Shown: piece after piece, positions 2 to 219 of the stretch | Position numbering within the stretch: position 1 is the first letter of the stretch | How the letters are laid out: the number at the start of each line of letters is the position of its first letter | Assembly (NCBI RefSeq): GCF_003334405.1 | Contig: NZ_QOWM01000076.1 | From: Escherichia coli | GTDB taxonomy: Bacteria; Pseudomonadota; Gammaproteobacteria; Enterobacterales; Enterobacteriaceae | Strand: one strand, 5' to 3' | DNA length: 219 nt | Translations under genes and position numbers: made by a program | The notes under the pieces: model-generated | Told to the model about the DNA's origin: nothing | Databases searched by the model: none | The model's input: the letters and a program-made list of their open reading frames with translations, nothing else

Positions 2-77
2 TGGCGTCCCCTAGGGGATTCGAACCCCTGTTACCGCCGTGAAAGGGCGGTGTCCTGGGCCTCTAGACGAAGGGGAC
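2..77 (-). tRNA. tRNA-Glu (anticodon UUC), complete 76-nt gene with genomically encoded 3' CCA
   Basis: Reverse complement of 2-77 reads GTCCCCTTCGTCTAGAGGCCCAGGACACCGCCCTTTCACGGCGGTAACAGGGGTTCGAATCCCCTAGGGGACGCCA. It folds as a cloverleaf: 7-bp acceptor stem GTCCCCT/AGGGGAC, anticodon stem CCGCC/GGCGG around loop CUUUCAC (anticodon UUC, encoded as gaa at window 41-43), T-arm GGGG-TTCGAAT-CCCC, and terminal CCA (window 2-4). From memory this matches the E. coli tRNA-Glu found in rrn spacers (gltT/U/V/W family); which copy cannot be told from the sequence. Confidence 0.95.
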
Positions 78-162
78 GTATCAGTCTGCTTCGCAAGACG
101 CCTTGCTTTTCACTTTCTATCAGACAATCTGTGTGAGCACTGCAAAGAACGCTTCTTTAAGG
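78..162 (-). other. 16S-tRNA-Glu internal transcribed spacer (16S-proximal part of ITS1), part of the rrn primary transcript
   Basis: The 85 nt lie between the mature 16S 3' end and the tRNA-Glu 5' end. The transcript-sense sequence is CCTTAAAGAAGCGTTCTTTGCAGTGCTCACACAGATTGTCTGATAGAAAGTGAAAAGCAAGGCGTCTTGCGAAGCAGACTGATAC. Its start (CCTTAAAGAAGCG...GTGCTCACACAGATTGTCTGATAGAAAGTGAAAAGCAAGGCG) matches my recollection of the enterobacterial 16S 3'-flanking spacer. Boundaries are set by the adjacent RNA genes. Confidence 0.85.
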
Positions 163-219
163 TAAGGAGGTGATCCAACCGCAGGTTCCCCTACGGTTAC
201 CTTGTTACGACTTCACCCC
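163..219 (-). rRNA. rrs: 16S ribosomal RNA, 3'-terminal 57 nt (partial; gene continues beyond the window end)
   Basis: Reverse complement of 163-219 is GGGGTGAAGTCGTAACAAGGTAACCGTAGGGGAACCTGCGGTTGGATCACCTCCTTA, the universally conserved 3' terminus of bacterial 16S rRNA. It includes the anti-Shine-Dalgarno CCUCC (window 166-170 as ggagg on the + strand). The mature 3' end ...CCUCCUUA maps to window 163; the exact end may differ by a nucleotide or two between species. Confidence 0.97.

Follow-up and report, generated by a model that had tools for sequence, protein, structure and literature searches.

The spacer that separates the gene for 16S rRNA from that for tRNA-Glu in an Escherichia coli ribosomal RNA (rrn) operon can be drawn with a small GAA-loop hairpin that lies a short way upstream of the tRNA. 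The question raised by this locus is whether such a hairpin is formed in the precursor RNA and whether its formation is of any consequence. The window, meaning the whole stretch of 219 nucleotides that was analysed (E. coli assembly GCF_003334405.1, contig NZ_QOWM01000076.1), corresponds on its minus strand to an rrn operon, 100% identical to the rrn copies of many E. coli genomes, and related copies are present in 5,426 of 5,426 complete E. coli genomes. According to the initial annotation the hairpin lies in the spacer of the pre-rRNA, as part of the tRNA-Glu 5' leader; ARAGORN, Rfam and the matching E. coli genomes agree on this location. The hairpin sequence is indeed found on the minus strand, at window positions 84-99 rather than at 85-100 as first annotated (the latter interval reads CGUCUUGCGAAGCAGA). 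Its last paired C is located at -7, as expected of a hairpin said to end 7 nucleotides upstream of the tRNA 5' end, and the pairing drawn for it (G-C, U-A, C-G, U-A, a bulged U, then G-C and C-G closing the GAA loop) is the exact minimum free energy (MFE) structure of the isolated 16-mer.

Folding models suggest that this hairpin is probably adopted in the processing-competent precursor. Taken by itself it is judged to be an ordinary, weak and dispensable leader hairpin that displays no compensatory evolution and whose surroundings are of more interest. These surroundings, namely a covarying helix that brackets the tRNA and a conserved block of 19 nucleotides mirroring the tRNA 5' end, are better supported than the hairpin. 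The interpretation favored here, tentatively and with somewhat less than even confidence, is that the hairpin represents the self-folded, or 'parked', form of this block inside a helix of 6 base pairs between leader AGCAAG and trailer CUUGCU.

Folding of the leader in the tRNA-Glu precursor

The tRNA +1 corresponds to window position 77, and a single trailer nucleotide is left in the window. When spacer and tRNA are folded within these limits, the MFE structure pairs the hairpin segment elsewhere, an outcome that the initial annotation had named as contrary to the hairpin. Seven added upstream nucleotides suffice for a competing hairpin, H1, to take over from the drawn one. In the free tail of the spacer, from +45 to +85 (spacer position +n being window position 163-n), H1 is obtained with a probability (P) of 0.97 and the drawn hairpin with P = 0.03, and nearly the same values (0.96 and 0.03) are found when the cloverleaf is enforced without any trailer. 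The drawn hairpin is predicted once the cloverleaf and an 8-nucleotide trailer are both included. In such constrained folds, where the tRNA is held in its cloverleaf using pairs taken from RNAalifold, the MFE structure consists of the bracketing helix (P = 0.97) and the drawn hairpin (P = 0.95), and H1 is reduced to P = 0.02. Relative to the tRNA alone, the bracketing helix and hairpin together amount to -10.6 kcal/mol versus -5.8 kcal/mol for H1. This combination is still the MFE structure with trailers of 45-70 nucleotides (P = 0.3-0.5). With a 12-nucleotide trailer, at least 4 leader-trailer pairs are present in the MFE structures of 51 out of 54 species, 40 of these 51 also displaying an inner hairpin; among the Enterobacterales folded in this way the inner hairpins are mostly built on a conserved GUC...GAC base. 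Caution is advisable with window-based scans, as the decisive partner is located a few nucleotides past the edge and reversed the thermodynamic verdict.

RNase P removes the 5' leader of a pre-tRNA by cutting at the -1/+1 junction. The model of the processing-competent precursor contains a junction in which three helices would come together, namely the bracketing helix, the hairpin and the acceptor stem of the tRNA. This arrangement would keep the block from other pairing and would leave single-stranded both the leader from -6 to -1 and the 3' GCCA, which are parts needed by RNase P. The predicted route to this state comprises three steps: the 5' part of the block would first pair with the upstream GCAAG to give H1, the block would then pair with the 5' half of the nascent tRNA, and it would finally be freed into the hairpin once the 3' strand of the tRNA and the trailer have been made. 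That the hairpin forms in vivo, that the folding states follow one another in this order and that RNase P is affected in any way are inferences from these models. A more ambitious version, in which the block would serve as a co-transcriptional chaperone or timer that masks the RNase P site and is later displaced into the hairpin, thereby licensing only complete and folded precursors, is considered improbable.

The helix bracketing tRNA-Glu

Homologous spacers were collected by scanning one genome per species for a 16S 3' end followed, after 70-100 nucleotides, by a tRNA-Glu 5' end. The scan yielded 89 stretches and 76 distinct spacers, mostly from Enterobacterales. Immediately after the CCA, the trailer begins with nucleotides that can pair with the leader motif (R)AGCAAG, and both arms change together (Table 1). 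The arms were aligned using only their GCA and UGC cores as anchors, which resulted in 28 distinct arm combinations. Changes on both sides are observed in 6 of the 8 pairs, with 18 compensated cells versus 8.4 +/- 2.4 in shuffled data (0/500) and a covariation score of 0.221 versus 0.112 upon shuffling (0/500). Pairing reaches 74.6% in the true register and 28-38% when the partner is slid. The mean energy of cognate leader:trailer duplexes is -8.0 kcal/mol, compared to -6.1 kcal/mol for non-cognate ones (0/20000 permutations, uncorrected for relatedness). The helix is short, only 5-9 contiguous pairs being present in any species. Since covariation is stronger for the trailer pairing than for H1, the trailer, outside the window, is the better-supported partner of GCAAG. 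Neither the bracketing helix around the spacer tRNA-Glu, which is common to both alleles of the spacer, nor the tRNA-mirroring block, both features of a transcript that ranks among the best studied in biology, was found described in the searched papers, where 16S leader-trailer analyses end at about +57 and publications from before 1990 were outside the search.

The two alleles differ greatly in length. The window carries the short (non-rsl) allele of the Glu-type spacer, of 85 nucleotides, whereas alignment gives 171 nucleotides for the spacer of K-12 rrnB. K-12 rrnC differs from the window by 1 mismatch. In both of them, 20 nucleotides (CTTGCGAAGCAGACTGATAC) separate GCAAGGCGT from the tRNA, and 106 other nucleotides are found there in rrnB. 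In constrained folds the bracketing helix is obtained with P = 0.97-1.00 in both alleles; the long rrnB allele (P = 1.00) builds the same helix around a different set of hairpins. The short allele occurs in 5,283 of the 5,426 E. coli genomes, as 16,210 virtually invariant copies with a median of 3 per genome. Its junction has no match in the remaining 143 complete genomes and is present in up to 7 copies elsewhere, and this wide variation in allele number (0 to 7 copies) fits gene conversion among rrn operons. The segment forming the hairpin falls exactly in the polymorphic stretch of the short and long 'rsl' (ribosomal spacer loop) alleles. Heterogeneity of the spacer DNA and gene conversion between operons were reportedly described by Harvey, Hill, Squires and Squires in 1988 (J Bacteriol 170:1235); the subject of that work differs from the present one, being DNA heterogeneity rather than RNA structure.

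A further hairpin directly follows the bracketing helix in all Enterobacterales examined. In K-12 rrnC (L001) it occupies positions 2218-2242, 7-31 nucleotides after tRNA-Glu and outside the window, and it combines an invariant GUGAAAG loop with a clearly covarying stem: one pair is GC in 31 cases, AU in 16, UG in 4 and CG in 2, and another is GC in 49 and AU in 6. Plain MAFFT alignments shift the GUCUUG/GUCUG register and scramble the GCA motif, with the consequence that RNAalifold recovered only the cloverleaf and this trailer hairpin from them; they were replaced by anchor-based alignments using N as the gap symbol.

In Photorhabdus luminescens the leader (GUCUGCGAAGCUGAC) and the start of the trailer (GCUUGCGAAGAUGAC) are direct repeats, about 11 of 14 positions being identical by eye, such that the block upstream of the tRNA is matched by the first 15 nucleotides downstream. 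E. coli keeps only CUUGC on both sides of the tRNA, and GCAAG thus has two alternative partners. The direct repeat could be a trace of the origin of the tRNA gene or of its flanks.

Table 1. Coordinates of the leader features and neighboring elements in the 219-nucleotide window, with the bracketing arms of selected species
Feature	Window position	Strand	Remarks
Drawn hairpin GUCUUGCGAAGCAGAC (G64-C79)	84..99	-	4 bp, bulged U, 2 bp, GAA loop; MFE structure of the isolated 16-mer
Conserved 19-nt 'anti-tRNA' block (G61-C79)	84..102	-	Imperfect inverted copy of tRNA-Glu nt 1-20
Bracketing helix, 5' arm AGCAAG (A56-G61)	102..107	-	3' arm CUUGCU starts at window position 1 and continues outside
Hairpin H1, GCAAG-GCGU-CUUGC (G57-C70)	93..106	-	-6.1 kcal/mol; 7-nt overlap with the drawn hairpin
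Unpaired linker UGAUAC (-6 to -1)	78..83	-	Between hairpin and RNase P site; length conserved, sequence free
tRNA-Glu(UUC) with encoded CCA	2..77	-	ARAGORN; Rfam tRNA, 60.1 bits; cloverleaf recovered by RNAalifold
16S-to-tRNA spacer, 85 nt	162-78	-	
16S leader-trailer (RNase III) helix, trailer strand, spacer ~+6 to +47	116..157	-	Co-fold with the K-12 rrnC 16S leader; pairs with the boxC region
16S rRNA 3' end (to ...CCUCCUUA)	163..219	-	Last 57 nt; Rfam SSU_rRNA_bacteria, model positions 1477-1533, 56.9 bits; annotated 16S rRNA in matching E. coli genomes
Bracketing arms, E. coli			Leader AGCAAG / trailer CUUGCU
Bracketing arms, X. hominickii			Leader GCAGCG / trailer CGCUGC
Bracketing arms, X. 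bovienii			Leader UGAGCAGGA / trailer UCCUGUUCA
Bracketing arms, X. indica			Leader CGAGCAAG / trailer CUUUGCUCG
Bracketing arms, Edwardsiella			Leader GCAAA / trailer UUUGC
Bracketing arms, P. luminescens			Leader UGCAAGC / trailer GCUUGCG
Bracketing arms, M. morganii			Leader GCAGA / trailer UCUGC

The conserved block and rival explanations

Enterobacteriaceae, Erwiniaceae, Morganellaceae and others preserve the block GCGUCU(U)GCGA...GAC to a striking degree, while the linker and the upstream A-rich stretch drift. To evaluate covariation of the hairpin, about 50 Enterobacterales spacers, which comprise 18 distinct variants, were aligned in the correct register. The U insertion or deletion was set at the bulge of the drawing, a choice that favors the hairpin more than any other placement. 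The base of the hairpin is well preserved among these variants (G-C in 17/18, U-A or U-G in 15/18 and C-G in 18/18).

A number of observations nevertheless weigh against a selected or functional hairpin. The isolated 16-mer folds at -3.0 kcal/mol. Its dinucleotide shuffles average -1.32 +/- 1.51 kcal/mol (z = -1.11), and an equal or better fold is given by 23 of 200 of them; the energy alone is unremarkable and no better than chance. Covariation at the stem positions across related spacers, which had been proposed as a check in the initial annotation, is absent, with 80.0% of cells paired versus 78.9% in shuffles (144/500), and a double change appears only once, in a Pantoea row that aligns poorly. 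RNAalifold likewise finds no local helix in the leader on the spacer alignments. Of the 52 distinct tails, 41 pair the invariant G of UGCGA with an upstream partner and 4 with a downstream one. Among 16 variants, 10 leave the fourth pair open (U.U, U.C, A.C), and the upper pairs are broken in major lineages, G-C in 5 variants and C-G in 3. The GC-GAA-GC top is lost in the Citrobacter/Enterobacter/Kluyvera type (GCGAUUGAGAC; GCGAUUG) and altered in Xenorhabdus (GCGAAGA). Loop bases G71 and A72 are invariant whereas stem bases C75 and A76 vary, which is the opposite of what a selected hairpin should display. The 19-nucleotide block is absent from the long allele in K-12 rrnB and rrnG as well as from the 143 E. 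coli genomes mentioned above, and is therefore dispensable. Of the role in leader structure or processing suggested in the initial annotation, the structural part finds agreement in the hairpin predicted for the full precursor; the part concerning processing is unsupported, and the long rrnB allele makes the same tRNA hairpin-free.

Longer precursors are also less favorable to the hairpin, whose probability ranges from 0.07 to 0.47 across longer trailers. With a 110-nucleotide trailer a wobble-rich alternative wins, and in unconstrained full-length folds a duplex between the block and the tRNA is preferred (-46.5 versus -43.2 kcal/mol), the hairpin being left with P = 0.1-0.2. The wobble-rich pairing, between leader 59-77 and trailer 5-33 (window 104-86 with L001 2216-2244; -49.0 versus -49.9 kcal/mol MFE), was given little weight. 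It depends on the Enterobacteriaceae GUGAGUGA repeat, whose second register it uses, and breaks the covarying trailer hairpin; by inspection it has no counterpart in Photorhabdus trailers, and it appears to be lineage-specific.

The strongest rival explanation, although thought unlikely, takes the hairpin as incidental and the complementarity of the block to the 5' half of tRNA-Glu as the selected feature. The block would pair transiently with nucleotides 1-20 of the nascent tRNA, as a co-transcriptional placeholder or delay element hiding the RNase P site until it is displaced by the 3' acceptor strand and the trailer. It is identical to the reverse complement of these nucleotides at 15 of 20 positions (shuffle P ~0.0005), and the block:tRNA duplex reaches -21.6 kcal/mol versus -11.3 +/- 2.5 kcal/mol when shuffled (z = -4.0). 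In the unconstrained fold G61-C63 pair with G18-C20, U65-U67 with A14-A16, G69-G74 with C6-U11 and G77-C79 with G1-C3. Controls are negative: the leaders of the Ile and Ala spacers display z = +0.3 and -0.1 against their own tRNAs, and the Glu leader z = +1.0 and -1.2 against tRNA-Ile and tRNA-Ala. Over 47 distinct leaders the median z is -2.4, 31 of them being below -2, and complementarity is kept by two endosymbiont leaders that can no longer be aligned, those of Ca. Pantoea carbekii (z = -6.0; CUUCUAGACGA) and Wigglesworthia (z = -4.1). The tRNA duplex engages the positions that never vary (66, 69-72 and 77), G71 pairing with C9 and A72 with U8, and leaves the most variable ones (68, 75 and 76) unpaired. 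This complementarity agrees better with the observed pattern of conservation than the hairpin. Folding of the growing transcript gives the anti-tRNA duplex P = 1.00 while tRNA nucleotides 21-66 are exposed.

Several points are nevertheless opposed to this explanation. The tRNA is invariant, which leaves no room for covariation. In the Citrobacter type, nothing rescues the changes at A73 and G74, two bases that are paired in E. coli, and no signal is obtained in 5 of 8 divergent outgroups. The leader of the long allele has no complementarity to the tRNA (z = +1.4), and 143 E. coli genomes do without the block. Finally, the stability of the duplex relative to the cloverleaf ignores Mg2+, modifications and tertiary structure, the latter earning the tRNA no credit in the folding model.

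Another partner considered for the block was helix hA of the 16S leader (CGUC-GCAA-GACG; CGUCGCAAGACG; -86 to -75; L001 423-434), which offers a perfect 10-nucleotide complement of spacer CGUCUUGCGA (window 100-91; duplex z = -2.4). This pairing was rejected: the hA loop changes in further operons and other genera to UUCG, GAAA, CUCG or UCAG and its stem to UGUC/GACA with an unchanged spacer block, Photorhabdus and Morganella keep the block without hA, and the pairing would be a pseudoknot across the RNase III stalk. The complementarity to hA is treated as coincidental or specific to E. coli.

A neutral origin, in which no function is exerted at the RNA level, is more doubtful. The block would stem from an ancient inverted duplication, a partial one, that made it the quasi-palindrome counterpart of the 5' end of the tRNA gene. 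Template-switch correction, together with the concerted evolution of rrn operons, would keep the two alike, and the folds would be by-products. Quasi-palindromes are corrected by template switching. The inverted-repeat similarity of 15/20 across a spacer of only 6 nucleotides, the dispensable nature of the block, the hairpin devoid of covariation and the near-identity of the short allele across its 16,210 E. coli copies, which fits homogenisation, all agree with such an origin. Purifying selection is argued for, however, by the retention of the block across several Enterobacterales families while the linker and the A-rich stretch diverge. Correction should moreover yield a perfect palindrome, whereas many genera retain mismatches, at identical sites, in 5 of the 20 positions, and the constant length of the linker suggests a constraint at the RNA level.

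It is very unlikely that H1 is the functional leader structure, leaving 15 single-stranded nucleotides before the tRNA. H1 is more stable than the drawn hairpin (-6.1 versus -3.0 kcal/mol), is predicted with P ~0.96 in the leader alone and in the leader with tRNA, and is the MFE structure of nearly all Enterobacteriaceae tails. Its arms vary (GCAG/CUGC, GCAGA/UCUGC, GUAGA/UCUGC), and partial covariation is detected, with a score of 0.153 versus 0.111 (2/500 shuffles). Pairs with double changes are nevertheless not in excess of shuffles (3 of 8 pairs versus 2.7), and the per-sequence shuffle P is 0.1-0.25. H1 has 5 base pairs in 32 of 52 tails and only 2-3 in 17 of them; its 5' arm is better supported when paired with the trailer, 8 nucleotides of which displace H1 as described above, and H1 is impossible in the long allele.

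The last rival requires a comment on the GCGAAGC core attributed to the hairpin by the initial annotation. The heptamer is present (window 95-89, minus strand) and resembles the d(GCGAAGC)/GCGNAGC mini-hairpin of Hirao and co-workers, which also has a GAA loop closed by C-G. The exceptional stability implied by this likeness does not carry over: it belongs to DNA, RNA versions being considerably weaker (PMC13037366), and the RNA 16-mer reaches only -3.0 kcal/mol with an unconserved heptamer. A DNA-level or antisense signal, either a d(GCGAAGC) mini-hairpin on the non-template strand, known to be very stable in DNA (PMC13037366), or an antisense intrinsic terminator at a terminator-like site on the plus strand (93-106, GCAAGACGCCTTGC then TTTTCACTTT; whole site window 93-116), is hardly credible, as the heptamer is replaced by GCGAUUG or GCGAAGA in the lineages cited above and the terminator is marginal (one site versus 0.3 +/- 0.7 expected; a 5-base-pair stem with 3 G-C pairs).

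The surrounding spacer, known systems and significance

Positions 116..157 of the window are predicted by co-folding to form one strand of the RNase III helix, and in this model they cannot take part in local folds of the primary transcript. The base of the 16S processing helix lies near nucleotides 1584-1589 according to Warner et al. 2023, who observed no effect on 30S activity of truncations past this point and analysed the trailer only to about +57 (PMC10250234). A distal pairing of GUCUG (window 125-121) with CAGAC (88-84), obtained in a 53-nucleotide fold, was rejected, GUCUGAU (+38 to +44) being part of the 16S stalk in the primary transcript. This pairing could matter only in transcripts devoid of the 16S leader, such as 'riRNA', whose promoter is reported inside the 16S gene (PMC5179076). 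An internal promoter just upstream of the tRNA was also considered and dismissed: no promoter-like site was found in the scan of the window, including this area, and the published riRNA promoter is located inside the 16S gene (PMC5179076). Enterobacter sp. EA-1 displays a 2-nucleotide deletion in boxC and in the matching trailer, in two operons.

Over the window, Rfam matches are limited to tRNA and small-subunit rRNA, and neither the leader nor the bracketing helix nor the trailer hairpin falls within any family. When the whole K-12 rrnC spacer is compared to Rfam, the only further significant match is StyR-44 (RF01830; 124.9 bits, E = 1e-21), at L001 2289-2397 in the spacer before 23S rRNA, well downstream of the tRNA and unrelated to the hairpin.

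Some of the records retrieved call for a remark. The spacer of JAHAYL010000010.1 ('MAG: Oxalobacter sp.') is identical to the E. coli type and that of CACSKA010000057.1 ('Chryseobacterium sp. 18061') to the Enterobacter type; both look like contamination or mis-binned enterobacterial rrn fragments. A tRNA-Glu of 75 or 77 nucleotides is found in E. coli E69 (CP089930.1), Enterobacter sp. EA-1 (CP025776.1) and Mixta mediterraneensis. These copies of odd length result from single-base homopolymer insertions or deletions (e.g. GAAT-CCCT), which are probably assembly errors rather than real variants.

Both the hairpin and the bracketing helix are filed under known kinds, the former as a structured pre-tRNA leader and the latter as a leader-trailer helix. 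Leader-trailer helices flanking rRNA were reportedly described by Young and Steitz in 1978. Like the processing helices of 16S and 23S rRNA (Warner et al. 2023, PMC10250234; Gemler et al. 2024, PMC11404451), the bracketing helix is formed by complementary flanks that pair across a mature RNA, with drifting sequences and the support of covariation. It differs from them by its length (5-9 base pairs versus 25-40), by the fact that it brackets a tRNA and abuts its CCA end, and by being too short for an RNase III substrate, a type of about 17-40 base pairs. In archaeal rRNA operons, the two flanks of the spacer tRNA pair and enclose it in a stem with a bulge-helix-bulge motif, which the splicing endonuclease cuts. 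The analogy appears to be partial, as no bulge-helix-bulge is present here and bacteria use RNase P together with RNase E or exonucleases.

Structured or inhibitory pre-tRNA leaders offer a likeness to the hairpin and the block, with a leader stem-loop near the cleavage site and complementarity at or near that site, both of which are determinants of the RNase P rate (PMC10731613). Cleavage is about 10-fold slower when a stable structure lies 2 nucleotides from the RNase P site, and orders of magnitude are lost when the proximal leader pairs with the RCCA or with the distal leader (PMC10731613). The tRNA-Glu hairpin differs from such leaders in that it stops at -7, outside the RNase P protein contacts reported at N(-3) and N(-4) (PMC10731613). 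From its base to tRNA +1, the linker measures 4-7 nucleotides in 51 of 51 tails, with a mode of 6 and a freely drifting sequence, and this constant length fits the same review. The block differs in that its complementarity reaches 20 nucleotides into the tRNA body.

The hairpin alone is of little importance, as a lineage-variable tRNA-leader stem-loop of a kind known to tune RNase P. If the bracketing helix or the tRNA-mirroring block affects the order in which tRNA-Glu is folded and processed, it would provide an easily mutable handle on the coordination of tRNA and rRNA maturation and, if true, this might also explain the coexistence of two very different spacer alleles.

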